IMG/VR virus record: IMGVR_UViG_3300035698_012122
Span: 1-64,000 of that record
From: a virus
DNA length: 64,000 bases
Direction: 5' to 3' (one strand)
A program made the position numbers and the translations under genes. Positions 8,458 through 31,287 of this stretch are shown here, in pieces. The notes beneath the pieces were generated by a model. It did not search any database and was not told the origin of the DNA. It saw nothing but the letters and a program-made list of their open reading frames with translations. Every line of letters begins with the position of its first letter. Position 1 is the stretch's first letter.

Positions 8458-10032
8458 ATGGGTAAAAAATTTAAAGTAAATAACAATGTTCTTATAAATA
8501 TGCCAGTGACACCTCAACAGTTTGGTGAAGCTTTGCAATTCCCATCTGGTCAAACAGGTGATTACTATTCGGTAATTGCGTATAGTTCTATTTATTCTAA
8601 AGTGTCTCAGCAAATGTCATCTATTGTAAAAGCTGTAGATGAAATGAGTAGCTTCTATTTGGTAGACGTAATCATATCTCAATTATCAGATGATGCACTT
8701 TCACCTAAAGTTTCAGATGATGAGATTTTTAGTTACTCAGCAGACAACAATGAAAAAGCACAAAAAGAACTTGAAAGAATGTCTAGGCATTTAGGACTAG
8801 ATCAACTTATAGAAAATATCACACCAGAACTTTTAAAATATGGTGAATACGTTTTAAGAACTGAAATAGATGAAGGCGGTGAAGCCCTTGATATGTCAGG
8901 AAAAGAAAAGAAACGAACTAGAAGAAAAGCAAAGTCTATGGGTGTCACTGAATTATGTGATGATGTAGAACAAGGTTCTGTAGTTTCATTAACTCAAAAC
9001 GGAACTGTAGAAGGTTATCTTCAAACCAATCCCTTTACTGGTGGAGTTGAAAGAAAACAATTTGCAGACTTTATTAAATTCACATTAGGTGGTCAACGGA
9101 TAAGAGTAGATACTAAAAGTCTAATTCCAAACGCATCACTAACAGATAAGAAATTTTATAAAATGTACAAGTCACTTCCAAGGTTCATTAGAATTGGGAA
9201 GTCAATTATTTATACATACTTAACTAAATTAAAAGAGTTAGAGCTATTAGAAAAAATGGCCCCAGCTTTAAAACTAGATGCAATATCTAGGGGTAATTTA
9301 GTTGGTATGAATTTACCAGATAGATATAATCTGGAAGATGCTAAAAAGGCATCTACTCACTTTGAAGAAACTCTTAATAAAAAAGTCTCAATTGATCCAA
9401 CATCTTCAGATATTTCAGTAGCTAATATTATAACAACTGCTGGTAAAACTAGAATCATTCCATTGTTTGGCGATAAAGGTTCTTTGCAGAACTTAGATTA
9501 CAAAGATGACAATGCAAGTGAGTTATCATCTGAAGCTGAAGACCTTAGAAAACTTATCCTAAGTTCTGTAGGTATTCCATTTGAATTGGTATATGGTTCT
9601 GATGGTGATGGTAAAGGTGAAATACTTAAGCGAAATGCTAAGTACGTTAGATTCCTTAGAAAAATTCAAAAATCTATTTCCAATGGTTTGAGAGACTTAG
9701 CGTATATACATTTATCAAACAAAAACATTGATTATAAAAAAGAAGACATTTCAGTTCACTTTAATAAAAATTTAGTCGATATAGAAAACCTAGATCAAAT
9801 TGAACGTGATGAAGCAACAGTTAGTGGTTTATCTTCAGTATTAGATTTTGTAACAGAACTGAAAGATGCAATTGGTGAAGATAGGGTAAACCTAGAACCA
9901 ATTGCTAAATACATGGATGAGAATCTATCTACCATCGGTTTAACAGGTCTGATTAAAATGGATGACATCAAACCAGATGAACCACTTGTAACTGATGATG
10001 AAGAAGGGGAAGAAAATGAAGTTGTGCAATAA
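8458..10032 (+). CDS. Portal protein (T4 gp20-like position)
   Basis: About 524 aa, upstream of core, protease and capsid genes; LLKYGEYVL and LRKLILSSVGIP portal-like segments; acidic tail. Confidence 0.75.
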   Translation: MGKKFKVNNNVLINMPVTPQQFGEALQFPSGQTGDYYSVIAYSSIYSKVSQQMSSIVKAVDEMSSFYLVDVIISQLSDDALSPKVSDDEIFSYSADNNEKAQKELERMSRHLGLDQLIENITPELLKYGEYVLRTEIDEGGEALDMSGKEKKRTRRKAKSMGVTELCDDVEQGSVVSLTQNGTVEGYLQTNPFTGGVERKQFADFIKFTLGGQRIRVDTKSLIPNASLTDKKFYKMYKSLPRFIRIGKSIIYTYLTKLKELELLEKMAPALKLDAISRGNLVGMNLPDRYNLEDAKKASTHFEETLNKKVSIDPTSSDISVANIITTAGKTRIIPLFGDKGSLQNLDYKDDNASELSSEAEDLRKLILSSVGIPFELVYGSDGDGKGEILKRNAKYVRFLRKIQKSISNGLRDLAYIHLSNKNIDYKKEDISVHFNKNLVDIENLDQIERDEATVSGLSSVLDFVTELKDAIGEDRVNLEPIAKYMDENLSTIGLTGLIKMDDIKPDEPLVTDDEEGEENEVVQ

Positions 10033-10576
10033 AATAAATGAAGAGTTATCAAATGAAAGTGCCAAAGGCCTTAAAGACATTAACCCTGAATTGTTAAAAG
10101 TAATTTTAAAAGACGGTGGTGATGATATAGCTAGGGATGCTAAAGAGATTAAAAAGGTTTCAACTAAAGCTGGTGATGTCTACGTTGTTATAACTGATGG
10201 CCACTCTAACTACTTTAGTTTAAAGCATGGTTGGATTGGTGAAGAAGATGAAGGCCTAGATCATAAAGACTTTATCAAGCACCAAGATGAATTTGATAAG
10301 AACCTTAAGAAAAGTAAATCAGAAAAAATTACTGAAGCTCAACACTACAATACTAAAGTGCGTGAACTAGCTGAAACTATGGGTAGCCGTAAAATTAGAA
10401 TGGGTGTTAAAGAATCTAAAAAATATGTTGATAATATGATAAATGCAGATCATGCTTCACCTAACCCACTAGCTGATAAAGACCTTAAAATTCTACAGGA
10501 ATGTTCTACCCTTTTAGGTCAAACTATTCCAAGGCTTAAAGAAGTAAAGGAAACTAGACGCAAAGGTAAGAAATGA
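10016..10576 (+). CDS. Putative internal head protein with MKLC leader
   Basis: AAGGGG RBS before ATG 10016; leader MKLCNKINEE shared with other genes. Confidence 0.6.
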   Translation: MKLCNKINEELSNESAKGLKDINPELLKVILKDGGDDIARDAKEIKKVSTKAGDVYVVITDGHSNYFSLKHGWIGEEDEGLDHKDFIKHQDEFDKNLKKSKSEKITEAQHYNTKVRELAETMGSRKIRMGVKESKKYVDNMINADHASPNPLADKDLKILQECSTLLGQTIPRLKEVKETRRKGKK

Positions 10577-11247
10577 AATTATGTAGTCAAATTAATGAAG
10601 CTATAAGTAACGAATTTGAACTTCATACTTCTGGAACAATTATAGAGGCATTGAAAATTGTATTCGCTTCTTATGCACTTCCATTTGAAGTATCAGAAGT
10701 TGAAATCGGTAATGGTGTAATTACATTAGATATACAAATAATCATTGAAGAAGAGAAAAGCGAATTTGAATTGCATTTCTTTGTAGATGAAGATGGTATT
10801 CCAAATGTTGCTGTATTCGATGATGAAGATGGTGATGAAGACTTTTTTGCTCATTCACTAAAGGGCATAGCATCCACTACAAAGGGTGCTGATGGAATAA
10901 CTGATATAGTTAACCTCATTGAACCGTCATGGCTAACAGAAGCCGTTATGATGGATATTTTAATGCCAGATGAAGATTCTGAATTGGAAGCTGAATTAGA
11001 AGAAGCTACTACATTTGTAATCCGTGATGGAAAAAAAGTTAAGAAGAAATTAGTTATAAGTAGAAGAAGAAAAGTTCTAACTGCAAAACAAAAAGCTGGA
11101 ATTAGAAAAGCGGTTAAAACTCGTAAATCTAAAAAAGGCCAAACAGCTAGAAAAAGAAAAATATCTAATAAGCTTAGAAAAAGAATGAAGCTTAAAAAGA
11201 ATACTAATAAAAGGCTAAAAGTAGCTGGAACATCTAGTAGGAAATAA
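10573..11247 (+). CDS. Prohead core protein (T4 gp68-like) with MKLC leader
   Basis: Acidic N-half, then LEE-ATTFVIRDGKK and a very basic C-terminus; lies between portal and protease. Confidence 0.65.
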   Translation: MKLCSQINEAISNEFELHTSGTIIEALKIVFASYALPFEVSEVEIGNGVITLDIQIIIEEEKSEFELHFFVDEDGIPNVAVFDDEDGDEDFFAHSLKGIASTTKGADGITDIVNLIEPSWLTEAVMMDILMPDEDSELEAELEEATTFVIRDGKKVKKKLVISRRRKVLTAKQKAGIRKAVKTRKSKKGQTARKRKISNKLRKRMKLKKNTNKRLKVAGTSSRK

Positions 11248-11472
11248 ATGGCCACTGTACCAGCAACTAAATTAGAAGGTGAAAAGCTACTTATAGAGTT
11301 AAGTAAGTTTACAGCAAAAGCTGGTAGAATCTTACTTAACAAAGGTAGCAAACCTGTTGAAAAGGATGAGGCCAGAACTGCATTAGGTTTATTAAACCAT
11401 GCCCAAGGTTTAGTTGGAACATCAGACCGTTCTGCTAGAAGATTATTAGCAATAGCCAAAAGGGCCTTATAA
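11248..11472 (+). CDS. Hypothetical protein
   Basis: 74-aa ORF abutting neighbours, AGGA RBS. Confidence 0.5.
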   Translation: MATVPATKLEGEKLLIELSKFTAKAGRILLNKGSKPVEKDEARTALGLLNHAQGLVGTSDRSARRLLAIAKRAL

Positions 11473-11474
11473 AA

Positions 11475-11903
11475 ATGAATGATAAAGAAACTAAATATAG
11501 TCATGCAGATAAACAAACAATGATGAAATTGTTTGACCTCATGGAAAATGTAAATGAAAATGTTATTTCGGCAAATAAAGAAATAACTGGTCTTAAAGTA
11601 AATGTTGGCCAGAACAACGTAATTCTAAAGCAACATCATGATAGGTCTACAAACCTAGAGGAAATTGTGAAAAAAGTTAAGGACGCATTAACAGAACTAA
11701 TTAAGAAAGTTGCTTCTATTAATACTAATGTGACTAATATTGATAAAGATTTAAAACCAATTAAAACTCATGTAACTAAAATTGAAAAGTGGACTAACAT
11801 GGTTTTAGGTGTTCCACTGTTTTTTAAATTAGTTTTTTGGGGTTTTGTTTTTGTTACATCAGGTTTTGGATGCTATAACGTAATTGTTAAAATGTTAAAT
11901 TAA
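11475..11903 (+). CDS. Coiled-coil protein with C-terminal membrane segment (possible lysis accessory)
   Basis: Heptads followed by LFFKLVFWGFVFVTSGFG. Confidence 0.5.
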   Translation: MNDKETKYSHADKQTMMKLFDLMENVNENVISANKEITGLKVNVGQNNVILKQHHDRSTNLEEIVKKVKDALTELIKKVASINTNVTNIDKDLKPIKTHVTKIEKWTNMVLGVPLFFKLVFWGFVFVTSGFGCYNVIVKMLN

Positions 11904-11916
11904 GGGGTAAGGAATT

Positions 11917-12636
11917 ATGGAATTTAAGTTTAGAGAAGATGAAGATGCACAAGCGTTCCTAGCTGAAATAGGTGTATTTGAAAATATAGTTTCTATAACA
12001 AAAGAATTTGAACCAACAGATGAACAGATTAATGAGTTTATTAAATCTCGTGCTGGATATACTGGTGGAAGTAAAGATAAAGATAAATCTAATGCACAAA
12101 AAAAGAATTGGAGAAAAAACAAGGGAAAAATTAAGCGTGGCATTAAATCTTTCCATAAATCAGTTGAGGGAAAAAAGTTCCACCGTAATATGGGTAGATT
12201 TTTGGCAACTAGAATTACCAGAGATAAACTATCAGATAGGAAAGATGAAGCCTTTTCGATACTGGAAAATTTAGAATATATCAAAGCACTAAACAGTGCT
12301 AAACAACAGCTATATATAGAGTTAGACTATTTCCATCCCTTAACAGAACAAGCACAATTAGAATCTTTAGTGATGGATTACGCAGTGCCTTTTTTCCGAT
12401 CAATTGAAGAAAAGATGGTTTTCAATGAAGATTTAACAGTTGATGAATTTGATTTTTTACTTGAAATCGTAGACGAAACTAAACTATTATTAGAACTATC
12501 CGATAGTATTAACGTACCTATTGATAAATTGACGGAAATGTGGAAACCTATAGTAGTTAAACTAAATGTAGAAGATGGGTTTTCTCTTGAGCAATTCAAT
12601 GAAGAGTTAGCTAATGAAGTAAGGACACTTAATTAA
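11917..12636 (+). CDS. Putative prohead core/head protein
   Basis: Basic segment (KKNWRKNK..FHRNMGRF) flanked by acidic regions; directly before the protease. Confidence 0.45.
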   Translation: MEFKFREDEDAQAFLAEIGVFENIVSITKEFEPTDEQINEFIKSRAGYTGGSKDKDKSNAQKKNWRKNKGKIKRGIKSFHKSVEGKKFHRNMGRFLATRITRDKLSDRKDEAFSILENLEYIKALNSAKQQLYIELDYFHPLTEQAQLESLVMDYAVPFFRSIEEKMVFNEDLTVDEFDFLLEIVDETKLLLELSDSINVPIDKLTEMWKPIVVKLNVEDGFSLEQFNEELANEVRTLN

Positions 12637-13983
12637 ATGAAGAACGTACCTATAATAGGCATTTCAAATGAACGTGTAAAATTTGAAATAGTCGAATCAA
12701 ATGAAGTTGATGGTGAACATATCATTGCTAAAGTGCGTGGTGTATTTTTCGTTCCAGATGGTAAATCAAGAAATGGTAGATACTATCCAAAAGAACTTTG
12801 GGAAAATGTTGTAAGTGACCCTGAAGTAATCGACAAATTAAAAACTAAAGCAATGTATGGAACTGTTGGTCATAGTCAAAAGATTGATGATGATGCAATT
12901 CTAAAAGGTTTAGTTTCTCATATTGTAACAAACATGGAAATTAAGAATGGTAAAGGAATTGGTGAAGCACTAATTCTGAATACACCAGCAGGTAAAAATC
13001 TAAATACGATATTACAAGCTGGTGGGTCAATGTTCGTTTCCACTAGAGCTGATGGTACTTTTGAAGGTAAACATGAAGGGTTGCCAATCGTTAGCCCAAA
13101 GACCTACAATTTCAATACAGTAGATTTTGTATTAGATGCTGGTTTTATAGAAGCCAATCCAAGCTTAACAGAAGCATATAATAATATATTAGAAACAAAC
13201 CAAGATAATAATGAAAACAAGGAAGGTAATATCATGTCTGAAAAACTAATTAAAATGCTATCTGATAGCAACGTAGACCTCAAAGTAGAAGTAAAAACTC
13301 TAACAGAGAGTCATTCAACTTTAACAGAAGAAAAAACTGTTTTAGAAGAAGAAAACAAACACCTATCAGGTGAAATGGTTAAGTTTGAAGAAGCAACTAA
13401 GAAAATTAAAGAAATGGAAGATGAAAAAGAAGCCGATGCTGAAAAGAAGAAGGAAGATGATAAAGAACTTTCAGAATTTAAAGAACTTGGTGAATCTTCA
13501 TCTGATGTTAAAGGCACTTTAAATAATGCTTTAACACATATTAAAAAAGTAAATGAAGAACTTGGTGGTTTTGATAATGCTAAAACAGCATTAGAAACAG
13601 CAATTACTTTTAAGAAATCAGTTGATGAAGCTGGTGGACTAGAAACTTTGATTGAAGCAAAAGCTAAGATTAAAGAAATGGAAGATGAAAAAGAAGATGA
13701 AGATAAAGAAAAAGAGAAAAAAGAACTAGCTGAAGAGTTAGGAATTTCTGAAGAAAAAGTAGCTGAATTACTAGAAACTAATTCTGCTGATGGAATCAGA
13801 AAAATGTTTACAGCATTAGAAGAAAATTTAGATAAGTCTAAATACAAAAAAATCTTTGAAAAGAAAAAAGCTAAATCTGAAGAAGATGATGGTGAAGATG
13901 ATGAAGATGATGATGAAGATGATGCTGATATTTCAGAATCTAAAATCTTATCAAAGAGTAATGCAAATTCAGTAAGTATGTAA
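12637..13983 (+). CDS. Prohead protease (gp21-like) fused to a scaffold coiled coil
   Basis: RNGRYY, GTVGH, ILNTPAG, VSTRADG and TVDFV protease motifs in the first 190 aa; E/K-rich coiled coil after. Confidence 0.88.
   Translation: MKNVPIIGISNERVKFEIVESNEVDGEHIIAKVRGVFFVPDGKSRNGRYYPKELWENVVSDPEVIDKLKTKAMYGTVGHSQKIDDDAILKGLVSHIVTNMEIKNGKGIGEALILNTPAGKNLNTILQAGGSMFVSTRADGTFEGKHEGLPIVSPKTYNFNTVDFVLDAGFIEANPSLTEAYNNILETNQDNNENKEGNIMSEKLIKMLSDSNVDLKVEVKTLTESHSTLTEEKTVLEEENKHLSGEMVKFEEATKKIKEMEDEKEADAEKKKEDDKELSEFKELGESSSDVKGTLNNALTHIKKVNEELGGFDNAKTALETAITFKKSVDEAGGLETLIEAKAKIKEMEDEKEDEDKEKEKKELAEELGISEEKVAELLETNSADGIRKMFTALEENLDKSKYKKIFEKKKAKSEEDDGEDDEDDDEDDADISESKILSKSNANSVSM
13234..13983 (+). 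CDS. Possible nested scaffold protein (in-frame internal start)
   Basis: AAGGAAGGT six bases before in-frame ATG 13234, at the protease/coiled-coil boundary. Confidence 0.55.
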   Translation: MSEKLIKMLSDSNVDLKVEVKTLTESHSTLTEEKTVLEEENKHLSGEMVKFEEATKKIKEMEDEKEADAEKKKEDDKELSEFKELGESSSDVKGTLNNALTHIKKVNEELGGFDNAKTALETAITFKKSVDEAGGLETLIEAKAKIKEMEDEKEDEDKEKEKKELAEELGISEEKVAELLETNSADGIRKMFTALEENLDKSKYKKIFEKKKAKSEEDDGEDDEDDDEDDADISESKILSKSNANSVSM

Positions 13984-13997
13984 TAAATAGAGTAATT

Positions 13998-14040
13998 TGT
14001 GTGGGTGCTACACTTTAGCTAATCCACACATTTTTTGTTT
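13998..14040 (+). terminator. Hairpin plus U-tract (terminator or attenuator) between scaffold and capsid genes
   Basis: TGTGTGG..CCACACA stem followed by TTTTTTGTTT. Confidence 0.55.
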
Positions 14041-14077
14041 TTCCCAATTTGAGTTTAGTTTGGTTTCTACACTTTAG
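14008..14077 (+). repeat. Two copies of CTACACTTTAG, each capping a hairpin
   Basis: Copies at 14008-14018 and 14067-14077; stems extend differently (GCTA/TAGC and TTCTA/TAGAA). Confidence 0.7.
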
Positions 14078-14150
14078 AATACACATAAAGAAAATTAGGG
14101 ATATTTTTTTAGAGTAACTAATATTAATCATAATTTATGGAGAAATTATT

Positions 14151-15584
14151 ATGAAACCAAATGAAATTAACGAAGATGTACTAAACCAAGAAAACACAAG
14201 ATTAGCTGAAGGGTATTGGAAAAAATACAAGAAGCAAATGCAATCACTGGAAAATGGTCTAGTTAATAAAGCTATGACACTTTCAGAACACCACATGGCT
14301 CAACTAGGTATGCAGTTAGACCAGTGGGAAAAATATACGCAAATGATGGAATCAAATGGTTCTTTAAACTCACTTGGAGAATTGCCAACAGTTGCACTAG
14401 ATGTAATTACAGCAACTTTAAGTGAATCAATTTTACCAGTAATTAGTTCTATTCAAACAATCAAAGCTCAAAACTCTTTAATTTGGTTTAAAGATATTGT
14501 TGCACTTGATTCAAAAGGTAATGTTACTGCTGGTGATGTTATGGTTAACCCAACTGAAGGTGTTAAAACACCACAAGGTTATGCTTCAGCTCAAGTAACT
14601 GGTGAAGATTCTGGTGATACAACTACTGGTACATTCGCTTATACTCATACTGTTAACGGTGGTGAATCTATCCGTAGACAAAATGTTAAAATTTATCTTC
14701 TATCAGATCCAGCAGTTTTTGCTAAAGATTTTGATGGTAAAGGTAAAGCATACGGTGAAGGCATGAGTGCTGTAATTGATTATGCAACTGGTATTATCGA
14801 AGTAACTCTAAGTGCAGACCCAGCTACAGGTGATAAGATCATGGTAGACTATGTTCAAAACTTAGAAGAAATGAGTGATGTTCGTAGACTTGGTTCACAA
14901 CTAAGAAGTGACAACATTGTTGCTATTCCTTATGCACTTAAGGGTGTTGCTGGAATGTTCCAAATGTTTGAACTTAAACAAACTTTTGGTGATTCTGCAT
15001 TACAAGATATGACTGATGATTTAGTTAGAGGTATCAATGCAGAGATTGGTGGAGATTTAATTTCTAAGTATAAAGCTAATGCACAAGGTACTACTTTATT
15101 CCAAGAATATAATCCACTAGTTCATACTGGTGTTCCAGAAGCAGATCATAACGCGGCCTACGCTTATAGACGAGCTGATGCTGAATCAGTAATCATGTCT
15201 AACAGTGGTAGAGGTGTAATTAAAGTTGTTATCGCTGGACATTTACATTGTGCAAAACTTAGAGGCATGGATGGATTTAATCTTCTATCTGATGGTGGAA
15301 GTTTAGGTGCTCATATTTTTGGTACACATAAAGGTGTTACTTATGTAAGAGTTCCAGATGAAAGTATTCTTGATAAGAGAGCTGGACTTGGAATCTTTAC
15401 TGGTACGAAGCCACTTGAAAGTGCTGGTGTTTATGCACCGTATATGCCACTTACAATTGGTGCTTCACCACTAGGGCCAAATCCATTAACGGAACAAAAA
15501 GTTGCGGCGAGTATGGCAGGAACTAAATGTGTTGTTCCAGCTTATGTTACGAACTTCAATGTTGCAGTAACTCCAAACCCATAA
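14151..15584 (+). CDS. Major capsid protein (T4 gp23-like)
   Basis: 477 aa after protease; GINAEI and GVYAPYMPL gp23-like motifs; GGAG RBS; terminator follows. Confidence 0.9.
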   Translation: MKPNEINEDVLNQENTRLAEGYWKKYKKQMQSLENGLVNKAMTLSEHHMAQLGMQLDQWEKYTQMMESNGSLNSLGELPTVALDVITATLSESILPVISSIQTIKAQNSLIWFKDIVALDSKGNVTAGDVMVNPTEGVKTPQGYASAQVTGEDSGDTTTGTFAYTHTVNGGESIRRQNVKIYLLSDPAVFAKDFDGKGKAYGEGMSAVIDYATGIIEVTLSADPATGDKIMVDYVQNLEEMSDVRRLGSQLRSDNIVAIPYALKGVAGMFQMFELKQTFGDSALQDMTDDLVRGINAEIGGDLISKYKANAQGTTLFQEYNPLVHTGVPEADHNAAYAYRRADAESVIMSNSGRGVIKVVIAGHLHCAKLRGMDGFNLLSDGGSLGAHIFGTHKGVTYVRVPDESILDKRAGLGIFTGTKPLESAGVYAPYMPLTIGASPLGPNPLTEQKVAASMAGTKCVVPAYVTNFNVAVTPNP

Positions 15585-15604
15585 GTCTAAATAACAATTA
15601 AACT

Positions 15605-15640
15605 AAGCAGTAGGGTGTAAAAGCCCCACTGCTTTTTTTG
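15605..15640 (+). terminator. Rho-independent terminator
   Basis: AAGCAGTAGGG..CCCCACTGCTT stem followed by a T run. Confidence 0.85.
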
Positions 15641-15659
15641 TTAAACAAGGAAACTAAAC

Positions 15660-16250
15660 ATGATTAAATACAAACTAAATAATGCTAGAAAAACTCAGGT
15701 TTCAACTGCAAAAATTGGTGGAAAAAGAATTGTTTTAGAATCAGGTGGAGAAAAGATAATTTCCTTTACAGATTTTAAGCGGTTTGAAAAATCTTTAAAC
15801 TCTCTAGTAACTTCAAATATTATTACTTGTGAAAAGCTTATTGGTGAAAAAGCCAAAGAAGCTAAAATAAGTGGTGATGAACCTTTATCTGATGAAGCTA
15901 AGAAAAAAATTGCTGATGATGCTGAAGCTAAAAGAATAGCTGATGAAGAAGAAGCTCAAGCTAAAAAAGATGAAGAAGAAGCTGAAGAAAAAAGAGTAGC
16001 CGATGAAGCTGAAGCTAAGAGATTAGCAGATGAAGAAGAAGCTAGTAATAAAGCCCCTGATGATGCTAATGAAACTGATGAATCTAAAGAAGGTTCTGAT
16101 GATGAAAATAAAGCACCTGATGCTGATATTGATTCTAATAACCCTGATAGTGATGCAAGTGTTCCAAGCAGTGAAGCTAAAGACACACAAGCACAACATA
16201 AAAATCAAGGTGGTAGAAACAATAACAGAAGCCGTAATAGAAACAAGTAA
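15660..16250 (+). CDS. Acidic low-complexity protein
   Basis: AD(D/E)AEAKR(I/L)ADEEEA repeats; AAGGA RBS. Confidence 0.6.
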   Translation: MIKYKLNNARKTQVSTAKIGGKRIVLESGGEKIISFTDFKRFEKSLNSLVTSNIITCEKLIGEKAKEAKISGDEPLSDEAKKKIADDAEAKRIADEEEAQAKKDEEEAEEKRVADEAEAKRLADEEEASNKAPDDANETDESKEGSDDENKAPDADIDSNNPDSDASVPSSEAKDTQAQHKNQGGRNNNRSRNRNK

Positions 16251-16269
16251 GAAATAATGGGGTATTGGT

Positions 16270-16938: not shown

Positions 16939-16941
16939 CTA

Positions 16942-18002: not shown

Positions 18003-18003
18003 T

Positions 18004-18318
18004 ATGAAACTATGTGAAGAACTAGATGTTGCTATGAATGAAGAGATTGTCCAAGTTACTAAAGATTTAAAAATGGTGGACAAGTCTAAAGCAACAGGTA
18101 AAGGCAAGAAGCCTATTATATACCTAAATGGTTCGGATGGTTACTGGTACAATAAAAGTGGAATATTAAATCAGATTAGAGCTAAAGGTGAAATAAAAGA
18201 ATTTGGTTTTACCAAAGGAAATGATGACATGGCAAAAGCTGAAAAAGATTTTATGGATAAAAAAATAACAATGTCAGCTTATTATGAACTAGCATCTGAA
18301 TTAGACCACAACAATTAA
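18004..18318 (+). CDS. Putative internal head protein with MKLC leader
   Basis: GGAG RBS before ATG 18004; MKLCEELDVAMNEE. Confidence 0.6.
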   Translation: MKLCEELDVAMNEEIVQVTKDLKMVDKSKATGKGKKPIIYLNGSDGYWYNKSGILNQIRAKGEIKEFGFTKGNDDMAKAEKDFMDKKITMSAYYELASELDHNN

Positions 18319-18328
18319 GGATATAAAT

Positions 18329-18742
18329 ATGAAACTATGTGAAGAACTAAACAAAGAAGTTAAAATGAGTACCAGTGAAGCAATTGATAACAACACCTAT
18401 CTAGGTGGTTATTTAAATGCACTTCTATTTGTTGGAACTGATGAAGAAGATAACCCATTAGATGATGAACATGACATTGACGATATTGATAAAGATTCTG
18501 TTAAGAAATCTGAAAAAGATATTGCTAAGTTTCTTAAAATGGCTAAAAAAGAATTAGAAGGAATTGAAGCTGATGATTCACAAATTGGTCATGACATTCT
18601 AATGACTAGACAAGGCACTGGTGTTGGTTTTCTCGATAGAGACTATGCTGATGATGCAATATTAAAAAAGTTAGATGGGTATGCTGATAAGCTTGGAAGC
18701 GTTTCACCTTTTGCTGAAAACGGAACTGTAGGAATTGATTAA
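18329..18742 (+). CDS. Putative internal head protein with MKLC leader, acidic
   Basis: MKLCEELNKE; first 21 nt identical to the 18004 gene; GHDILMTRQGTGVGFLDR motif. Confidence 0.6.
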   Translation: MKLCEELNKEVKMSTSEAIDNNTYLGGYLNALLFVGTDEEDNPLDDEHDIDDIDKDSVKKSEKDIAKFLKMAKKELEGIEADDSQIGHDILMTRQGTGVGFLDRDYADDAILKKLDGYADKLGSVSPFAENGTVGID

Positions 18743-22275: not shown

Positions 22276-22283
22276 TTCTAAAA

Positions 22284-22325
22284 TTTATAATGGGCCTTAG
22301 CTAAAACCTTTGGCCCCGTTATAAA
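22284..22325 (+). other. Intergenic hairpin after the tube gene (stability or processing element)
   Basis: TTTATAATGGGCC..GGCCCCGTTATAAA inverted repeat; followed by As, so not a classic + strand terminator. Confidence 0.5.
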
Positions 22326-22344
22326 AAATCGTTAAGGTAAACCA

Positions 22345-23034: not shown

Positions 23035-23062
23035 TCGTTAAATAAGGAATAAGGAAACAATC

Positions 23063-23908: not shown

Positions 23909-23945
23909 AAGAGTAGTAGAATATTTTAAAGAAGATAAGAAATAG
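23799..23945 (+). CDS. Small overlapping chaperone ORF (gp51-like or frameshift extension), 48 aa, not in the ORF track
   Basis: MDERHLLNLEFTMAMHLNITPRELGQMEFLQVVELNKRVVEYFKEDKK in the +1 frame; fills the gap to the tape measure gene. Confidence 0.65.
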   Translation: MDERHLLNLEFTMAMHLNITPRELGQMEFLQVVELNKRVVEYFKEDKK

Positions 23946-23953
23946 CACCAAGG

Positions 23954-25906
23954 ATGGTAATGGCAACAGTTACTTCAGATACAAGTATAATGGACATCTT
24001 AGGCGGTGGTGCTTCTTCTCAACATTTTGAGTTGATGGAAGAGAGTAATGACCTAGCACGAGAAGAACTAAAGAGACATGAAGCAGTAGCTAATGAAATG
24101 GCTTTGATGTCCACTAATGCTGGAAATTTTAAAGAGTCACTTCAATCCACATATATCCAAGCAACTACAAAATTACATGATGGGATAGTTAATCCACTTA
24201 AACAGATTCGTAGTGAAGCTACAGCATCATATAATACGCTTACTAGTTCTGTTCATGAAATGGGAATGGGTGTAACCGAAAAACTTTCAGATGTTAAGGA
24301 AGGTTTTAAAACTGGACTATCAAATGTTAAAGAAGGTTTTTCATCTAGCGTATTAGATTTAAAAACTGGTTTCACCGATGCGGTTACATCTACTAATGAA
24401 TTTTTAGATGGAATGTCTGTAAAGATGGAAGCATTTAGCAATCTACCAACAGAACAAAAACTATTACTAGCTGGTCAAACAATTGCAGATGGTGTTGTTT
24501 CATCCTTTAATGCATCATCAGAAATTCTAAGTGCTGGAATGGAATCATTAGGAACTGGTATTACAGCAGTTGGTGGTTTTGTTAAATCATCTGCTGGATA
24601 TTTAAAAGGCCTATTTCAAAAATCTGAAGAAGGTGAAGATGTTGGTGGAACTTCTGGTGCTGGTGCAGATAGTAAAAATTCAAAAGAAGATGATAGTACT
24701 TCTGGTGGTGGAATTGGTTCACTACTTGGAAAACTAATGCCTAAAGGTCTTTTAAAGATGTTTGGTAAAACTGGTAAGGTACTTGGAAAACTTGGTAGGT
24801 TTGCTGGAAAATTAGCTCTACCATTAGTTGCAATCATGAGTATATTTGATTTCGTAGGCGGTGTTCAAAATGCTTCAGAAATAATAGGTAAACCAGAAGA
24901 TCAATTATCAAATTTAGAAAAAGCTGGTGCTGGATTAGCTGGTGTTGTTTCAGGACTGACACTTGGTTTTGTAGACGCTAGTACTATTTATTCTGAAGGT
25001 GCTCAAATAATAGATTCTGTTAGCGGTTTTGCTTCAGACATATTTAATAGTTTACCATCAGGTGTTCAAGATGGATTAACAAAAGTATCAGATGTTTTAT
25101 TCAGTTCTGAAACTGGTATCTTCTCATCTATTGGTAGAATCTTTTCTGAAAACATTGATGCAATTGCAGATGGTGATTATGGAACATTATTATTAAATGT
25201 TTTAACTCTACCTTTACAAGCACTTTTTAGTAGTGATGGGATAATAGCAAATACATTTAATAGTGTTATGGAACTTCTACCTAATTCATTCAAAGATTCT
25301 ATTGGTGGTTTTGTAGATACTATAATGGGGTGGTTTGATAAAATTAAAACCATGGCATCAGATTTAATTCCAGATTCATTAAAGAGTTTAATAGATGGAA
25401 CGCTTACTTCTGATATTGGTAAAAAAGTATCTGGAACTTTAGGTAAAGGTGTTGATTCTGTAAAAGGTTTCTTTGGCTTTGGTGGAGATAAAGAAGAAGA
25501 AGTATCTGATACAAAAATAAAAGAACGTAAATCTATAAACGAATTTGCAGATAAAAAAGCAATTGATAAAGACACTACAAGTAGAAAAATAAAATCAGCT
25601 AGTTCTTCAGCAATAGTAGTTAGATCAAGTGAGCAATCTGGAAACCAAATAAGTGAGAAAAAAGCAAGGGCAAAAACAGTTACTAGAAATAGTAGGGTAA
25701 ATGCTAAAGCAAAAAATATTAAAGATTCCGATACTGCTACTAAGCGGTCTAAAGAACAGATGAATAAGAAACAGGATATTCAACCTGTTATTATACAATC
25801 ACCAGCACCAGCTCAAAAAAGCAGTGGTAGCGGTAAACAACTAAACACCAGTACAACTATTGGTGATACTGAATTAGCAGTTATGAACTCTAATATGATG
25901 GATTAA
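23954..25906 (+). CDS. Tape measure-like protein
   Basis: 650 aa, helical, 11-residue repeats (LSDVKEGFKTG/LSNVKEGFSSS), G/A-rich hydrophobic segments, follows chaperone. Confidence 0.75.
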   Translation: MVMATVTSDTSIMDILGGGASSQHFELMEESNDLAREELKRHEAVANEMALMSTNAGNFKESLQSTYIQATTKLHDGIVNPLKQIRSEATASYNTLTSSVHEMGMGVTEKLSDVKEGFKTGLSNVKEGFSSSVLDLKTGFTDAVTSTNEFLDGMSVKMEAFSNLPTEQKLLLAGQTIADGVVSSFNASSEILSAGMESLGTGITAVGGFVKSSAGYLKGLFQKSEEGEDVGGTSGAGADSKNSKEDDSTSGGGIGSLLGKLMPKGLLKMFGKTGKVLGKLGRFAGKLALPLVAIMSIFDFVGGVQNASEIIGKPEDQLSNLEKAGAGLAGVVSGLTLGFVDASTIYSEGAQIIDSVSGFASDIFNSLPSGVQDGLTKVSDVLFSSETGIFSSIGRIFSENIDAIADGDYGTLLLNVLTLPLQALFSSDGIIANTFNSVMELLPNSFKDSIGGFVDTIMGWFDKIKTMASDLIPDSLKSLIDGTLTSDIGKKVSGTLGKGVDSVKGFFGFGGDKEEEVSDTKIKERKSINEFADKKAIDKDTTSRKIKSASSSAIVVRSSEQSGNQISEKKARAKTVTRNSRVNAKAKNIKDSDTATKRSKEQMNKKQDIQPVIIQSPAPAQKSSGSGKQLNTSTTIGDTELAVMNSNMMD

Positions 25907-25908
25907 TT

Positions 25909-26664
25909 ATGGCCTTTAAAATAAATTCACAAGGTACAGCAGAATTACAAGCTAATGAACTTTATAAGTTTCTAATAGCTGGTTCTGGAATAGCAGTTGA
26001 AGGACAAATGCAAAATCAATTATCAATTGGTGGAGCAAATGGATTTACAGATGTTGCAAGTGTTTTATCCGAACTAGCAGATGTTGCTGGTGGAGTATCA
26101 AAAACTTTAGGTGCTGTTATTGGTCTAGCGAAGGCCGCGAAACAAGGTTTAAATGCAGTTAATCAAGCATCATCACGTTCTAAAATAACAGACTTTGAAT
26201 CTCGTTTAATATGGGAATCATCTGAAAAACCACAGTTCGTAATTGAATATACTTTTTATAATGAATCACAATCACAAGCTGAAAGTTCAAAGGGTGCTTT
26301 ATCTCAAGCACTAGCATTGCAAAGGGCGGTTCTACCATCAAAAGGTTTACCAGCAAAAGGAAGGCCCGGTGTTTTCTTTAAATCACCACTTGGATATAAA
26401 CCAAAAACTGGTGGTAACAAAGTAGCTCAAGGAACTTTAACACTTTCAATTGGTAGATGGTTTAGAGCTTCAGACTTAGTTGTTAAATCAACAAACTTTA
26501 CACCTTCAGTTCAAGTTATGGGTAACGGTCATCCAGTTCTAGTGAAAGGTTCAATTACTTTAGAACCATCAGAATTAATTACATACGAAACATTTAAAGG
26601 TTATTTTAGAAATGTAACTACAAATTCTGCTAACAGTGGGAATACAATTTTAGGAAGCTTATAA
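25909..26664 (+). CDS. Tail tube initiator/baseplate protein (gp48-like)
   Basis: Position; LSIGRWF..GHPV..ITL pattern. Confidence 0.5.
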   Translation: MAFKINSQGTAELQANELYKFLIAGSGIAVEGQMQNQLSIGGANGFTDVASVLSELADVAGGVSKTLGAVIGLAKAAKQGLNAVNQASSRSKITDFESRLIWESSEKPQFVIEYTFYNESQSQAESSKGALSQALALQRAVLPSKGLPAKGRPGVFFKSPLGYKPKTGGNKVAQGTLTLSIGRWFRASDLVVKSTNFTPSVQVMGNGHPVLVKGSITLEPSELITYETFKGYFRNVTTNSANSGNTILGSL

Positions 26665-27023
26665 TGGCAAACGATAAAGAATTTTTTATTAATACAGATA
26701 TAAAAACAGAGAAAAGATATGATCTAGCAAAGTTCTTAGAACAAGGTGCAGATAGTTTTGACCCTTTAACATCTTCTCTATTAGATAGGGTGGATAAATT
26801 AGAGCTAGGTGGTTACTACACTGTTCAAGGTGAAGATGGGATGCCATGGCTACTATCTGAAAGGCTTTATGGAGATAACCAATACTGGTGGATTATTATG
26901 CTCTATAACGGTTTTGCTGGTATAGAAGACATAACAAACGGTGAAAATATAAAGTACCCATCTATAAATGCAATCCAAGATGAATACTTCACGTTAAAAA
27001 CTCGTGAAAGGACAAGCGAATAA
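26664..27023 (+). CDS. Baseplate wedge protein (gp53/LysM-like)
   Basis: LLSERLYGDNQYWWIIMLYNG..IKYPS. Confidence 0.8.
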   Translation: MANDKEFFINTDIKTEKRYDLAKFLEQGADSFDPLTSSLLDRVDKLELGGYYTVQGEDGMPWLLSERLYGDNQYWWIIMLYNGFAGIEDITNGENIKYPSINAIQDEYFTLKTRERTSE

Positions 27024-28174
27024 TGTTGTTCGGTAAAGAAGGTCAATATGTATGTTCTATAAATATTGAAGGCATTGATGCTGAATTTATGGAACATGAT
27101 GACTTAGAAATTCTAAAGATAGTTGAAGAAGCTGGAAATGTTTTACCAACTTTTGCATTGTCATTTACAACTTACTTAGAAGATGTAATGTCAAAAATGA
27201 ATGATGGTGCAATAATTAAAGTATCAATGGGTGTTGATATTGAAAACATGGAAGACTATGAACTATCAGTATCTAAATTTAGTTCTGAAGTAGTTGGCAA
27301 TACAAATGTTAAAATTTCATGTATCGGTTTTGCATCAAAAATAAATTTCATTACAGACCAACCATTACAAATAACTGCTGAAAAATCTGGTATTGAAGTA
27401 GCTATTGAAACAGCATCTAAGAATTTCAAAGTAGATTCCAACATCACAAAATCTAAAGATAAAATGAAATGGATTCAATACTCAGTAACAGATAAGAAGT
27501 TTGTATCAGATTGCTTACTTCACAGTGAGATTACAGATTCATTTATTGCTTCAGCTATTACAGCTAGTGGTAAATATATTATTAGGGATGTTAAGAAGTA
27601 TGTTAAATCTTTGAAAGGTTCTTATGATTGGAAGTTTACAAAAGACAATGATGGAAAACCAAATAGTATTATAATTGAAGGTGGATTAAATATTAGTTCA
27701 CGTTCTGGTTTTATAAACAATTGGACTGGATATAAAAAGATAGCTAATGGAATTAATATAAAGAAAAAAGAAACTACTGATGTGTTTACTGAAGATACGG
27801 AAGTTTTACTTTCATTAGCTTCAGAATTAGATAAGGCCAAAACAATTACAGATAGATTCTCTGGTACTAGGATTTTATCAGATAATGTTCATGAAACTTA
27901 TTGGGAATGTTATGAAAAGAATCTAAAGGGATTGGCCTCTTTATCTAGGATGGGAATACCAGTTAGCTTCTCAAATGAGTTTAGAAGTGTAGAACCACTG
28001 CAAATTGCAATGTATTCACAACCATCTACAAATAATGAAGATGAAGCTAGTGAATATGTAACAGGTCTGTATATAATATCTAACGTAACAAAAACAATAC
28101 AAGCTAATATGTTCAACATTACTTGCATCTTAAATAGAGAAGCTTTAAATGTTGTAGACAATGAAGGGGTATAA
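27023..28174 (+). CDS. Baseplate hub protein (gp27/gpD-like)
   Basis: Size, position, C-terminal TGLYIISNVTKTI. Confidence 0.6.
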   Translation: MLFGKEGQYVCSINIEGIDAEFMEHDDLEILKIVEEAGNVLPTFALSFTTYLEDVMSKMNDGAIIKVSMGVDIENMEDYELSVSKFSSEVVGNTNVKISCIGFASKINFITDQPLQITAEKSGIEVAIETASKNFKVDSNITKSKDKMKWIQYSVTDKKFVSDCLLHSEITDSFIASAITASGKYIIRDVKKYVKSLKGSYDWKFTKDNDGKPNSIIIEGGLNISSRSGFINNWTGYKKIANGINIKKKETTDVFTEDTEVLLSLASELDKAKTITDRFSGTRILSDNVHETYWECYEKNLKGLASLSRMGIPVSFSNEFRSVEPLQIAMYSQPSTNNEDEASEYVTGLYIISNVTKTIQANMFNITCILNREALNVVDNEGV

Positions 28175-28175
28175 A

Positions 28176-28646
28176 TTGAAATCAATTAACGAAGCAATGA
28201 AGGAATTTGAAACTAAAGATAAAGATATTAGTATTTTTGAAGCTAAAGAATTTGATTATGATAAGTTCCAAAAGACTTTAGAAAAACTACAAGGCAACGC
28301 TAAAAAAGCTGAAGAAAACTATACAGATTATTCTTCAGGTGAACAAAGTAAAATACAGGATGCACATTGGGCCAACCAAGACCTAATGCTTAAATTCAAA
28401 GACAAACTAGGCAAACAAGCTAGAAAACGTAATGATGCTGGTGAAGATCAAAAAGAAATAATGTCAGATTTAAATTCCAAATTTGCAGACTATGTTAAGA
28501 AGATTGGTTTTGCAGATTCTAAAAAAGCATATCATGATGCTGATGTTGTATGGAAGAAATTTCTAACAGCTATGGAAAATGCTAGAAAAGAATTACGTGA
28601 CCATGAAGGTACAAAGCCAATGAAAATAAGCGGTTTCGGAAACTAA
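28176..28646 (+). CDS. Putative internal head protein with MKSINEAM leader
   Basis: AAGGGG RBS before TTG 28176; 25 nt identical to the start of the 30871 gene. Confidence 0.6.
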   Translation: MKSINEAMKEFETKDKDISIFEAKEFDYDKFQKTLEKLQGNAKKAEENYTDYSSGEQSKIQDAHWANQDLMLKFKDKLGKQARKRNDAGEDQKEIMSDLNSKFADYVKKIGFADSKKAYHDADVVWKKFLTAMENARKELRDHEGTKPMKISGFGN

Positions 28647-28655
28647 AGGAGATAT

Positions 28656-29261
28656 ATGAAAACTTTAACAGAACAATTAAAATTAGAACTAGGTGAAGAA
28701 AAAAGCATCAAAAACAACGGATATAAATACAGTCCGATAAAGTTAAAGGATGCACTTAAAAAACCAAACTCTAAAGATTTAGGTGCAGAAGCATCTAAGC
28801 ATGATGAAAAAGATATTGAGGTTTATTGGATTGAAGATGAATCACTATTAGATAATGTAAAAAACAAAGGTAATCTTCTTTGGATTATAAAAAGTAAAAA
28901 AAGTGAAGGTTCTTTAAACAGTCTAGGTGCTTTACCTAAAAAAGGTGTTGAAAAGAAACCTGTAGTTGAAGCAATGAAAAAAATAACTGACAAGATGACT
29001 GATGCTATGAAAGACGATAGCAGTATAAGCACCTTAACAGTTTTATTTCTACGAGCTGTTGTTAATAATAAATTCCCTTTAAAGTTTGATATGGATAAAG
29101 GCAATGGAGAAATTACATTTGATTTTGGTGTAGTTCCGTTTTCAATCGGAAACGAAAATGTAAACTTTGAAATTGGTAAGGGTAAGGTTTCTGCAAAAGG
29201 TAATGATGATGCTTTTGCTGTAGTTAAACACCTATTAGAAATTGATAAACTAGCACAATGA
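28656..29261 (+). CDS. Putative internal head protein (MKTLTEQL leader)
   Basis: Leader resembles neighbours; internal KKPVVE-AM linker. Confidence 0.5.
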   Translation: MKTLTEQLKLELGEEKSIKNNGYKYSPIKLKDALKKPNSKDLGAEASKHDEKDIEVYWIEDESLLDNVKNKGNLLWIIKSKKSEGSLNSLGALPKKGVEKKPVVEAMKKITDKMTDAMKDDSSISTLTVLFLRAVVNNKFPLKFDMDKGNGEITFDFGVVPFSIGNENVNFEIGKGKVSAKGNDDAFAVVKHLLEIDKLAQ

Positions 29262-29277
29262 CCATAAAGGATAAATT

Positions 29278-29727
29278 ATGAAAAACATTTCTGAAGCAAT
29301 GAAAGAATTTAAAACTAATGAAAAACCAGTAAACGAAAAACGTAAAAAGATGAAACAAAAAGAAATGATCGAAGAGTTAAATAGTTACGGTGGTAGTAAT
29401 AAGAACATCTTTGTTTTTGACCCTGATTCGGGTAAGTCATTTAGCATTTCTCACATAACAGAAAATGGCCCTAAAACTCTTCAGATGAATGTTGATTCGG
29501 CATGGTGGGATAAAAACGAATCAGTTGATGAAGCCAAAACAATAAATCCATTATCACAACTAGATAAAGGTTCTAGTACAGTTCTTTTTGATCTTCTAAA
29601 ACTTAATGGAATAGAAGACGTAACAGAACTAGGTAAAAATGCAAAAGCTAAGAAGAAACTTTTAGATGATTTAGATTTTGCTAAAGGTGTGCTTGAAAAG
29701 GTTATTAAAGAAGTACACTCACTATAG
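29278..29727 (+). CDS. Putative internal head protein (MKNISEAM leader)
   Basis: MKNISEAMKEFK; internal VNE and VDE-A linkers. Confidence 0.6.
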   Translation: MKNISEAMKEFKTNEKPVNEKRKKMKQKEMIEELNSYGGSNKNIFVFDPDSGKSFSISHITENGPKTLQMNVDSAWWDKNESVDEAKTINPLSQLDKGSSTVLFDLLKLNGIEDVTELGKNAKAKKKLLDDLDFAKGVLEKVIKEVHSL

Positions 29728-29734
29728 GAATTAA

Positions 29735-30508
29735 ATGTTACTAAAATTTGCAGATCATTTAAAACCATCTAAATCATTGAAAAGATTTCATAAAGGAATC
29801 GTAGTAGATAATGAAGACCCTGATAAATTGGGAAGAGTTAAATGTACTGTTAGCAGAATGTTTATAGGTGATAAAGCAAATTTACCATGGGTTTTTCCAA
29901 AGAATGATTCACCAGTAAAATTTGATGTTCCTAAATTAGGTGCAGAACTAATTATCATATTCCCTTTTGAAAATATTTATGCACCATTTCATGATGGTTA
30001 TTGGCATACACTGGACAATCACAATGATTACTTTGATGATGATTATCCTAATACTTCTGGTTTTTTCAAAGAGAATCTAAAAGGTAAATTTAACGATAAA
30101 TCCAAAGCTGGTGAAGTAGAACATAGTTCTGGAACTAAAGCAGAACTAGCAGATGATGGAAGCGTAACAGTGGCCATTGCAAAAGATTTAGAGTTAACTA
30201 TTGAAGGCAAATATGCCGTTAATGCTAAAGGTGATATGACCTTTGCAACAGATGCTAAAATAAGTTTTGCTGGTGCTGGTGGATTGGATTACACAACAGA
30301 TGGTAATGCAGTTTTTAAAGGTACTGGTGGAACTGATGTAGGTGATGCATCAAGTGCTACAAACGTAAAAGGTTCTGTAGTTAATTTAGCTGGTGGTGGT
30401 TCGGCAATCGCACTTCTTGGTTCACAATGTATAGGGTCAGGAAATCATGGAGCACCTGTTGTAAGTAATATTGTAGAAGGAAGTAGTAAGGTGTTTGCAC
30501 CAAAGTAG
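29735..30508 (+). CDS. Baseplate central spike (gp5/gpV OB-fold plus beta-helix)
   Basis: GIVVDNEDPDKLGRVKC, EHSSGT, glycine-rich beta repeats, GNHG near tip; no lysozyme domain seen. Confidence 0.85.
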   Translation: MLLKFADHLKPSKSLKRFHKGIVVDNEDPDKLGRVKCTVSRMFIGDKANLPWVFPKNDSPVKFDVPKLGAELIIIFPFENIYAPFHDGYWHTLDNHNDYFDDDYPNTSGFFKENLKGKFNDKSKAGEVEHSSGTKAELADDGSVTVAIAKDLELTIEGKYAVNAKGDMTFATDAKISFAGAGGLDYTTDGNAVFKGTGGTDVGDASSATNVKGSVVNLAGGGSAIALLGSQCIGSGNHGAPVVSNIVEGSSKVFAPK

Positions 30509-30513
30509 GATAG

Positions 30514-30855
30514 ATGAATTTATGTGAATCAATTAACTATGCAATAAACGAAGGTGTAAAAGACTTCATAAAAGAGAAGTTTAAAATCAAAGACGATGCC
30601 TTTGAAAAAACAGAACCAGATCATTGTGTTAAATCAATTGCTAAAACTAAAGATGGTTGGGTAGGATTTAGTCATAGAGCATACCATGAATTTAAAGTTG
30701 GTGATAAATTGTTCGATGCTAAATGGGATGATGATGGAAACCTAACTGAAGAAGAAGTTGAGAAACTAAAATTTGTAGAACGTGGTGCTAAAAAATGTAA
30801 AAATCAAGAAGACTGTAAACAAGCATCTGCAAATTTTGCACAATATGTATCATAA
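30514..30855 (+). CDS. Putative internal head protein (MNLCESIN leader)
   Basis: MNLCESINYAINE; WVGFSHRA..FKVGD..ANFAQYVS recalled as a recurrent phage motif. Confidence 0.6.
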   Translation: MNLCESINYAINEGVKDFIKEKFKIKDDAFEKTEPDHCVKSIAKTKDGWVGFSHRAYHEFKVGDKLFDAKWDDDGNLTEEEVEKLKFVERGAKKCKNQEDCKQASANFAQYVS

Positions 30856-30870
30856 CCATAAGGGGTAAAT

Positions 30871-31287
30871 ATGAAATCAATTAACGAAGCAATGAAAGAT
30901 TTTAAACTAAATGAGAAAAAAGAAAAGGTATCAGAAGCTAAATCAACTTTCACATTAGACAGTATGCCAGATGAAAAAGAAGCTATGAAAATTCTTAAAG
31001 ATGGTGGAATTAGTTTTTCTAATAAAAAGAACAAGTTCACATTTGACGATAAAGATTACGATAAAGCAGTTAAGATGCTTAATGCTAAAGAAATTGAAGG
31101 CATTGATGAGAAAAAAGCTGATGAAGCAACAATGTTTCCATCTGAAAAGAAATTCTATAGTGGAATAGAAACAGTTTATAAAATACTTAATTCAGCTAAA
31201 GACAAAACAGCTTCTAAAGAACTTGTTTCTGAATTGGCTAAATTAGAAAATAAAATGCTTAAATTTTTAAGAGCTGAAGATATATAG
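30871..31287 (+). CDS. Putative internal head protein (MKSINEAM leader)
   Basis: MKSINEAMKDFKLNE; VSE-A and ADE-A linkers. Confidence 0.6.
   Translation: MKSINEAMKDFKLNEKKEKVSEAKSTFTLDSMPDEKEAMKILKDGGISFSNKKNKFTFDDKDYDKAVKMLNAKEIEGIDEKKADEATMFPSEKKFYSGIETVYKILNSAKDKTASKELVSELAKLENKMLKFLRAEDI

Follow-up and report, generated by a model that had tools for sequence, protein, structure and literature searches.

Nine dispersed late genes of an uncultured, distantly T4-like phage begin with closely related leaders of 6–15 residues. These genes lie between positions 10,016 and 31,287 of a 64-kb stretch of DNA (the window, positions 1 to 64,000 of IMG/VR record IMGVR_UViG_3300035698_012122), which is taken from a single 76.7-kb contig. 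The phage has T4-type head machinery, the leader family is statistically robust, and the leaders are homogenised within each genome. We propose that the leader is probably a removable capsid-targeting tag, which would resemble the capsid-targeting sequence (CTS) of T4 in function without being recognisably homologous to it. The shared N-terminus would form an amphipathic-helix address tag that docks new late proteins onto the assembling prohead core, comprised of a protease–scaffold fusion together with its partner proteins. The tag would then be cut off at an [LIM]xE site by the S77 (gp21-family) head protease, and the mature proteins would be kept in the capsid and exit with the DNA at the next infection. 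Two of the genes, 10016 and 10573 (genes are named here by their first position in the window), would encode conserved core or DNA-binding head proteins, while the other seven would be exchangeable accessory cargo, of which at least the Tad6-like 30514 could plausibly disarm host immunity on arrival. Docking, cleavage, capsid retention, ejection and anti-defence activity we infer from sequence. The initial annotation of this DNA had interpreted the leaders as capsid-targeting signals, and our analysis supports that interpretation in part.

All nine starts listed in the initial annotation are present where it placed them, on the + strand, with a purine-rich ribosome-binding site (RBS) 5–12 nucleotides (nt) upstream. 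The start codon of 28176 is TTG, not ATG, and that of 10016 is an internal ATG within a longer frame that opens at 9995. M[KN]LC forms the N-terminus of five of the approximately 84 genes and [SN]I[NS]EAMK[ED]F is common to three. The first gene after the portal gene is 10016 (10016..10576; leader MKLCNKINEELSNE, 10016–10057), which has an RBS and start of its own and is conserved in the clade. It is followed by 10573 (10573..11247; leader MKLCSQINEAISNE, 10573–10614), which belongs to phrog_1053 (family alignment A5) and may be a gp68 analogue. An orphan cargo candidate of 104 residues, 18004 (18004..18318; leader MKLCEELDVAMNE, 18004–18042), occupies a variable spot in the neck region, which in relatives holds other tagged or unrelated genes. 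The 18329 protein (18329..18742; 12-residue leader MKLCEELNKEVK, 18329–18364) is acidic, with a pI of 4.3, and has a phrog_1915 body (2.9e-15). Gene 28176 (28176..28646; leader MKSINEAMKEF) is inserted between the baseplate genes 27023 and 29735. The remaining tagged genes are 28656 (28656..29261; leader MKTLTEQLKLELGEE), an orphan cargo candidate of 201 residues, 29278 (29278..29727; leader MKNISEAMKEF), 30514 (30514..30855; leader MNLCESINYAINE, 30514–30552), which carries a Tad6-like domain corresponding to the C-terminal two thirds of the Pfam model, and 30871 (30871..31287; leader MKSINEAMKDF), an orphan cargo candidate of 138 residues. For 28656 we found no family match and no usable atlas match, and 30871 had no homologue in a search of 5.8 billion proteins and nothing usable in the atlas search. 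The bodies of the nine proteins had been described as unrelated. All-against-all BLAST of the 84 gene calls of the window genome agrees with this, except that 28176, 29278 and 30871 show weak paralogy over their full length (E 4e-7 to 7e-5). The match between 10016 and 10573 is limited to their first 30 residues.

We compared the leaders with those of related phages. The capsid protein of the window has 81 relatives in a large protein collection, the closest being P0002, P0003 and P0006, whose capsid proteins are 79–90% identical to it. An alignment of 20 capsid relatives (A1) led to seven IMG/VR loci, from which four whole contigs were used (G001 to G004). A locus search with the single capsid protein returned no loci, and the 20-sequence alignment was needed. 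N-terminal pairs were scored over residues 2–13, only between proteins with non-homologous bodies. A two-class expectation–maximization (EM) procedure on the N-termini was dominated by orthologues between loci, and was replaced by networks without body homologues and by leave-one-genome-out profiles. The profile rankings cover 74 or 76 genes of the window genome.

The sharing of leaders seen in the window was confirmed, and it extends across a clade. When the window and seven relatives were pooled, 73 pairs scored at least 20, compared to 9.4 in shuffles, with a connected component of 24 N-termini. The window genome alone gave 14 pairs scoring at least 18, compared to 2.5 in shuffles. A position matrix built from the leaders of relatives only gave the seven highest ranks among 74 genes to 10016, 18004, 18329, 28176, 10573, 30871 and 29278. 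An indel-tolerant profile, also trained on relatives only, placed all nine genes inside the top 12 of 76, together with the capsid protein N-terminus, 51944 and 40302; 28656 has the top score with this profile. The initial annotation had raised the question of whether the motif is as frequent elsewhere in the genome. Strong profile matches in this genome-wide ranking of N-termini are all on the late strand, thus the motif is not equally common in non-virion genes. Chance, or a compositional bias among Lys- and Glu-rich N-termini, was tested and rejected as an explanation and is exceedingly improbable. MK- starts and [LI]xE motifs are common in the window genome, but the pair counts are 5–8 times those of shuffles, Cys occurs at position 4 in five genes, and an independent profile from relatives recovers all nine.

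A possible tenth member, as yet unconfirmed, is the 276-residue gene 51944 (51944..52774, + strand). It follows the tail-fibre genes, outside the reported span, starts with MKLKAYEILLELS, and ranks eighth of 76 with the profile trained on relatives only.

The MKLC and MKSINEAMKEF classes of leader belong to one family, as the best alignment of the latter to every MKLC leader falls at exactly a 3-residue offset, and the 28656 leader joins the family at a 1-residue offset. These offset alignments also uphold the suggestion that the 30514 leader bridges the two classes. The tag consensus, M-K-L-A-E-[EK]-[IL]-L-x-[L]-L-E-E, varies from genome to genome. The leaders are amphipathic helices, with a hydrophobic moment of 0.52 versus 0.28 for other N-termini (p = 7e-17). 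As predicted, they carry the [LIM]xE motif, which is found within 22 residues in 37 of 40 leaders versus 103 of 421 other proteins (24%), although the motif is short, the proteins are rich in E, I and L, and part of the excess is built in by the selection of leaders on similarity.

Two other explanations for the leaders were rejected. There is no shared promoter/RBS cassette, since the upstream DNA is not conserved, and MKLC is not a lipoprotein signal, since no hydrophobic signal segment follows.

At the nucleotide level, identity around the tagged starts is 0.36 upstream and 0.62 downstream, with the similarity beginning at the start codon. Identical leader residues use the same codon in 218 of 325 cases, compared to 174.5 expected, and the 10016 and 10573 leaders have 9 residues in common but only 3 codons. 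The onset of similarity at the ATG and the many synonymous differences indicate selection on the peptide rather than on a promoter/RBS cassette. We therefore consider it very unlikely that these gene starts lack a protein function and are recombination joints, or 5' coding sequence that serves translation initiation in an AT-rich genome. Such an origin would fit the near codon-level identity in 28176/29278/30871, in 18004/18329 and in 53133/53457 of G001, the somewhat higher than expected codon identity overall, and the movement of tagged genes between positions. Against this, around one third of the identical residues have different codons, the DNA upstream diverges, and hydrophobic periodicity, acidic residues and [LIM]xE are kept across genomes despite sequence differences. 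A few of the leader pairs do look like products of recent duplication or gene conversion.

In every relative, small late-block genes begin with MKLAEK.L, MK[LIV][IV]NEIN, MSK[AS]KK.LES or similar. Four relatives share the phenomenon, with up to approximately 14 tagged genes per genome, and G001 contains a 15-member leader cluster. Leader pairs score higher within genomes (mean 10.7) than between genomes (mean 5.1; label-permutation p = 4e-4), a test that is biased because the leaders were defined by within-genome clustering. Comparisons of orthologues are free of this bias. The 10016 leader scores 46 against that of the unrelated 10573, and only 20, 6 and -4 against those of its own orthologues; the 10016 orthologues (in G001, G002, L008 and L011) also begin with the leader type of their own genome. 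Similarly, the leaders of two Tad6 orthologues score 3 against each other, while each scores 30–34 against unrelated tagged genes of its own genome. Thus, the tags are homogenised within each genome. The greater likeness within genomes than between orthologues fits ligands of one shared, co-evolving partner per phage, and gene conversion could contribute to it.

Next, we investigated the head module. Pfam matches to Portal_T4, Peptidase_S77 and Gp23 bear out the initial assignment of a T4-type head with a gp21-family protease. The portal gene (8380..10032, + strand) matches Portal_T4 (3.5e-7) and the PHROG portal family. The prohead protease gene (12637..13983, + strand) encodes 448 residues, in which a protease (residues 1 to approximately 179; Peptidase_S77 1.7e-9) is fused to a scaffold-like domain. 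The T4 gp21 structure (5JBL, E 4e-6) was matched by a profile built on the protease domains of seven orthologues, while a phmmer search of the PDB with the single protease gave no match. H79, S135 and D163 are invariant, with a spacing that we take to be close to that of the gp21 catalytic triad. E179 is also invariant, in the context [LIV]xE|[ASG], and is positioned exactly at the junction between protease and scaffold; the scaffold part contains 16 [LIM]xE motifs versus 8.5 expected (p = 0.0015). In the Gp23-like major capsid protein (14151..15584, + strand; Pfam Gp23), E67 is invariant across alignment A1, where P3 is Met, Ile or Leu and the residue after E67 is Ala or Ser. T4 gp23 has LTE|A (residues 63–66 in the T4 record) at the matching position, which makes E67 a candidate maturation cut like that at E65 of gp23. 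Taken together, the capsid E67, the junction E179 and the motif excess in the scaffold point to cutting after hydrophobic-x-Glu, as for gp21, and thus imply an [LIM]xE specificity for the head protease.

The capsid protein itself begins with MKPNEINED (window 14151–14180), which is leader-like here and in P0002 and P0003, and not in more distant relatives. A further head-module gene (11917..12636, + strand) encodes a 239-residue protein with F-L-[AT]-E near residues 15–17 in its orthologues. It is a candidate processed core protein, and a homologue is also found in Rhizobium phage RHph_TM30. Directly upstream of the portal gene, the loci of five relatives encode an RRM-like protein of approximately 84 residues, M.NK[IL]FIGGLNY... 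(L005 3675–3926, L008 371–625, L009 3125–3376, L010 1254–1517 and L011 1044–1298). A small frame of the window at 8166–8453 is a candidate homologue.

The leader is portable, as originally suggested. Both the 18329 body and Tad6 domains are found with and without it. The 18329 body is 32% identical (E 6e-16) to gp166 of Cronobacter phage CR9, which sits in a block of small hypothetical genes and lacks the leader. Met1 of CR9 gp166 aligns to Met13 of 18329, thus the window gene has a 12-residue leader ahead of the old start.

Comparison with related phages also bears out that the tagged genes interrupt a conserved order of structural genes, with seven of the nine being insertions. None of these seven is found at the corresponding position in RHph_TM30 or G001–G004, while the relatives tag other genes elsewhere. 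Such accessory cargo genes are presumably non-essential. 10016 and 10573 differ from the other seven in being the conserved first and second post-portal genes in all relatives. RHph_TM30 has its homologues of 27023, 29735 and 32834 side by side, and those of 27023 and 29735 are adjacent in G001 too. The window has 28176, 28656 and 29278 inserted in the interval from 27023 to 29735, with 30514 and 30871 placed after 29735. G001 lacks tagged genes in the 27023-29735-32834 region and carries them instead in the neck region, behind the portal gene, and in the intervals from the tube-like to the hub gene and from the terminase to the portal gene. With gaps of -17 to 16 nt to their neighbours, the tagged genes form part of late operons, and their products are hence made during prohead assembly.

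These positions bear on whether the tag has a destination in the virion other than the capsid interior (the tail lumen, baseplate or spike tip, for example), which would liken the tagged proteins to spike-adjacent effectors. Around the gp5/VgrG-like spike gene 29735 and the hub-like 27023 are five of the nine genes, and two of the tagged genes of G001 are those between its tube-like and hub genes. However, the tag also heads the two conserved post-portal genes in the head-core block, most tagged genes of G001 and G002 are near head and terminase genes, and the tag has the motif of the head protease while no tail-assembly protease is evident. We regard this alternative as unlikely.

The 10573 protein has an acidic N-terminal half followed by a very basic tail of approximately 80 residues, with a net charge of +28 over the last 60 residues. 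Its family (A5) has an invariant E144 in an [LIVF]xE site just ahead of the basic tail. 10573 looks like a pro-protein, in which the acidic part would mask a DNA-binding peptide until cleavage. It gave no match to Pfam. One of the leader carriers had been named as gp68-like, and the position of 10573, second after the portal gene, agrees with this. The match of its tail (RKRK.SLK.RKR.KL) to the gp68 C-terminus is weak (21 columns, hhalign E 5.7e-4, probability 30%), and we make the comparison less firmly than the initial annotation did. [LIM]xE is mildly enriched in both 10016 (5 versus 2.3 expected) and 10573 (6 versus 3.8).

This enrichment, and the conservation of 10016 and 10573 beside scaffold genes in the manner of T4 gp67 and gp68, both of which are processed to fragments (PMC5694885), would suit a different fate for the tagged proteins. 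They might be minor scaffold or core components that co-assemble through the helix and are degraded by the protease, with nothing delivered. The seven accessory genes argue otherwise: they are not conserved, they vary in position and number, they include stand-alone folded domains (Tad6, phrog_1915 and a 2H phosphoesterase), and their bodies have no excess of the cleavage motif. We judge it improbable that the tagged proteins as a group are consumed in this way, and return to the proposal that they are delivered cargo.

The suggestion that some cargo counters host defence fits 30514, a homologue of the Thoeris inhibitor Tad6. Tad6 inhibits type I Thoeris by binding ThsB: the two proteins are purified together, and Tad6 is predicted to obstruct the active site of ThsB (Yirmiya et al. 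2025, as summarised in PMC13728456). 30514 matches the Pfam Tad6 family (PF25188) with an E-value of 8.1e-14 and 52.3 bits, against a cut-off of 27. The match covers profile positions 55–145 of 145; the domain is incomplete, with the leader helix in place of the N-terminal third of Tad6. Its orthologue in G001, G001_41214, is 40% identical and contains a full-length Tad6 domain (2.7e-31, 109 bits) behind a tagged N-terminal extension of approximately 37 residues. G001_41214 adjoins the portal gene, not the baseplate block. Both proteins keep the invariant G-W-S-H-R core of Tad6. An AlphaFold2 (AF2) model of 30514 has a predicted local distance difference test score (pLDDT) of 89.6, the only poorly defined part being residues 1–10 (pLDDT 52), and the predicted helix spans residues 4–23. 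A fold search with this model found no match in the PDB and only unnamed viral proteins in BFVD, and we found no solved Tad6 structure for comparison.

An exhaustive search returned 1194 clusters with a Tad6 domain, most of the top matches beginning directly at the domain. Leader-like starts precede it in some, such as P0084, P0133 and P0099. Four other Tad6-domain proteins from metagenomic sources (P0085, P0130, P0173 and P0223) have a different common N-terminal module, MPNS.VK..A..SGKSV.EVE.LW.K. In other groups of phages, Tad6 domains may be attached to different modules for delivery or docking. Another tagged protein of a relative, G002_59424, is a 2H phosphoesterase of the LigT type in which both HxT motifs are present.

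A more specific proposal combines these observations. The tag could be a genome-specific address helix of this clade that co-evolves with its docking partner, and so provide a plug-and-play loader, by which any small protein that gained the helix at its start codon would be packaged in the capsid. The clade would use it to pre-load inhibitors of signalling immunity, which would reach the cell along with the DNA. The pre-loaded inhibitors could be a Tad6-like blocker of ThsB and a 2H phosphoesterase that destroys nucleotide signals. We offer this only as a tentative extension and think it rather doubtful. If it is true, these would be the first anti-Thoeris or anti-CBASS-type factors delivered as virion cargo.

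Several points weigh against the capsid-targeting proposal, in addition to the selection biases described above for the [LIM]xE count and the within-genome test. The phage is uncultured and the tag system is known from sequence alone. The leaders are not significantly similar in sequence to the T4 CTS (MKTYQEFIAE), which had been drawn on for the original interpretation: the CTS scores -6.7 with the clade profile, ranking 17th of 80 T4 control N-termini, and at best 14 in pairwise comparison, ranking 28th of 80. Similarity to the T4 gp24 propeptide was not significant, as its rank of 2 of 80 is before correction for the eight T4 N-termini compared. If the MKSINE tag is cut after the first INE, it would have six residues and be shorter than any CTS we know of. 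The accessory cargo bodies contain 8 [LIM]xE motifs versus 10.4 expected, and hence show no depletion of potential cleavage sites. Finally, the Tad6-like protein YerA41_059 of Yersinia phage YerA41, which is 41% identical over the C-terminal domain, was labelled a structural protein by virion mass spectrometry. However, likely contaminants are among the 63 proteins of the YerA41 virion list, and the proteins labelled structural, early-region ones included, have no common leader, so we give the label of YerA41_059 little weight.

The window has a G+C content of approximately 32% and nearly all genes from 0 to 54 kb are on the + strand. They include a myovirus structural block of terminase, portal, head protease–scaffold fusion, major capsid protein, sheath, tube, hub and baseplate genes. 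The closest capsid matches among cultured phages are from Rhizobium phages, at 33% identity, and a megablast search with 23 kb of the window found no match among cultured phages. One salt-lake metagenome run contains 74% of the sampled words from a 5-kb stretch of the window and may be the sample of origin. Among the sequencing runs listed, the DNA runs are salt-lake metagenomes and there are no RNA runs.

Wider scans for the leaders were largely negative. A viral scan with leader DNA patterns yielded nothing beyond an INEAMKEF inside another T4-like head protein, and a metagenome scan with the loose pattern MK[LF]C..INE gave almost only chance matches among the matches listed. Four unrelated T4-like head modules from IMG/VR (L001–L004) encode a 132-residue protein between the gp21-like protease and scaffold genes (10113–10511 in L004). 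Inside this protein is MKYINEAMKEFKK, which has the INEAMKEF core of 28176, 29278 and 30871. The likeness may be fortuitous or may reflect a common scaffold-binding motif. Four short metagenome contigs (L072, L090, L106 and L113) end a few codons past an RBS-preceded start of the MKFCEEINE type, and these breaks may reflect an assembly break at the repeated leader or chance. In two relatives, N-termini that are QueC-, QueD- and QueE-like (candidates by motif) lie between the terminase and portal genes with tagged genes interleaved, at approximately 12.5–30.3 kb in G001 (L018–L019) and 51.9–59.2 kb in G002 (L026). QueC, QueD and QueE act in 7-deazaguanine DNA modification. The window genome has no such block.

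If the tag works as proposed, the internal-protein principle of T4 would extend beyond the T-even phages, and T4-type heads in general would have an evolvable loading system. Tags would drift and be re-homogenised in each genome, and cargo could be read straight from sequence. Searching for the N-terminal tag of a genome would then be a cheap way to pick out, in uncultured phages, candidates for injected anti-defence proteins, the majority of which lack a known family. This also raises the question of whether inhibitors of Thoeris-type signalling defences are delivered ready-made or expressed after entry. In addition, such short tags could provide packaging handles for engineered capsid cargo, a use to which the T4 CTS is already put.

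We compared the proposed system to known examples of head-loaded or processed proteins. The Dar proteins of phage P1 (DarA, DarB and Hdf) are anti-restriction factors that are packed into the head as it is assembled and then delivered along with the DNA. They differ from the proteins described here in belonging to another head lineage, and no single short, interchangeable tag is known to be common to them. Compared with the Tad6 family, 30514 and G001_41214 differ in carrying the leader as an N-terminal extension. The propeptides of T4 gp24, gp22, gp67 and gp68 are similar to the leaders in being removable N-terminal segments of head proteins that end at the protease motif. The gp24 start, MAKINELLRE|S in the T4 record, resembles MKSINEAMKEF, although not significantly. 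Head propeptides of phiKZ- and SPN3US-like giant phages have 80–275 residues and AxE or SxE motifs (PMC5694885).

The closest parallel is the CTS system of the T-even phages. Ip1–3 and Alt share only an N-terminal leader that directs packaging and is removed by gp21 (PMC3012670, PMC5694885, PMC12373910), and the Ips are injected inhibitors of GmrSD nucleases (PMC12373910, PMC3012670). In all features that can be read from sequence, the system described here resembles this one in its workings, although its tag is not recognisably related to the T4 CTS. Both systems combine a T4-type head with a gp21-family protease and a short N-terminal peptide, ending in hydrophobic-x-Glu, on unrelated and variable proteins, and in both the cargo plausibly counters host defence. 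Here, in contrast to T4, protease and scaffold form one fused protein, each genome has its own tag consensus, and the tagged genes are dispersed in late structural operons rather than gathered in separate ip loci. Whereas the T4 cargo acts against GmrSD nucleases, the candidate cargo of this clade, a Tad6-like protein and a 2H phosphoesterase, would be directed against signalling-type immunity.

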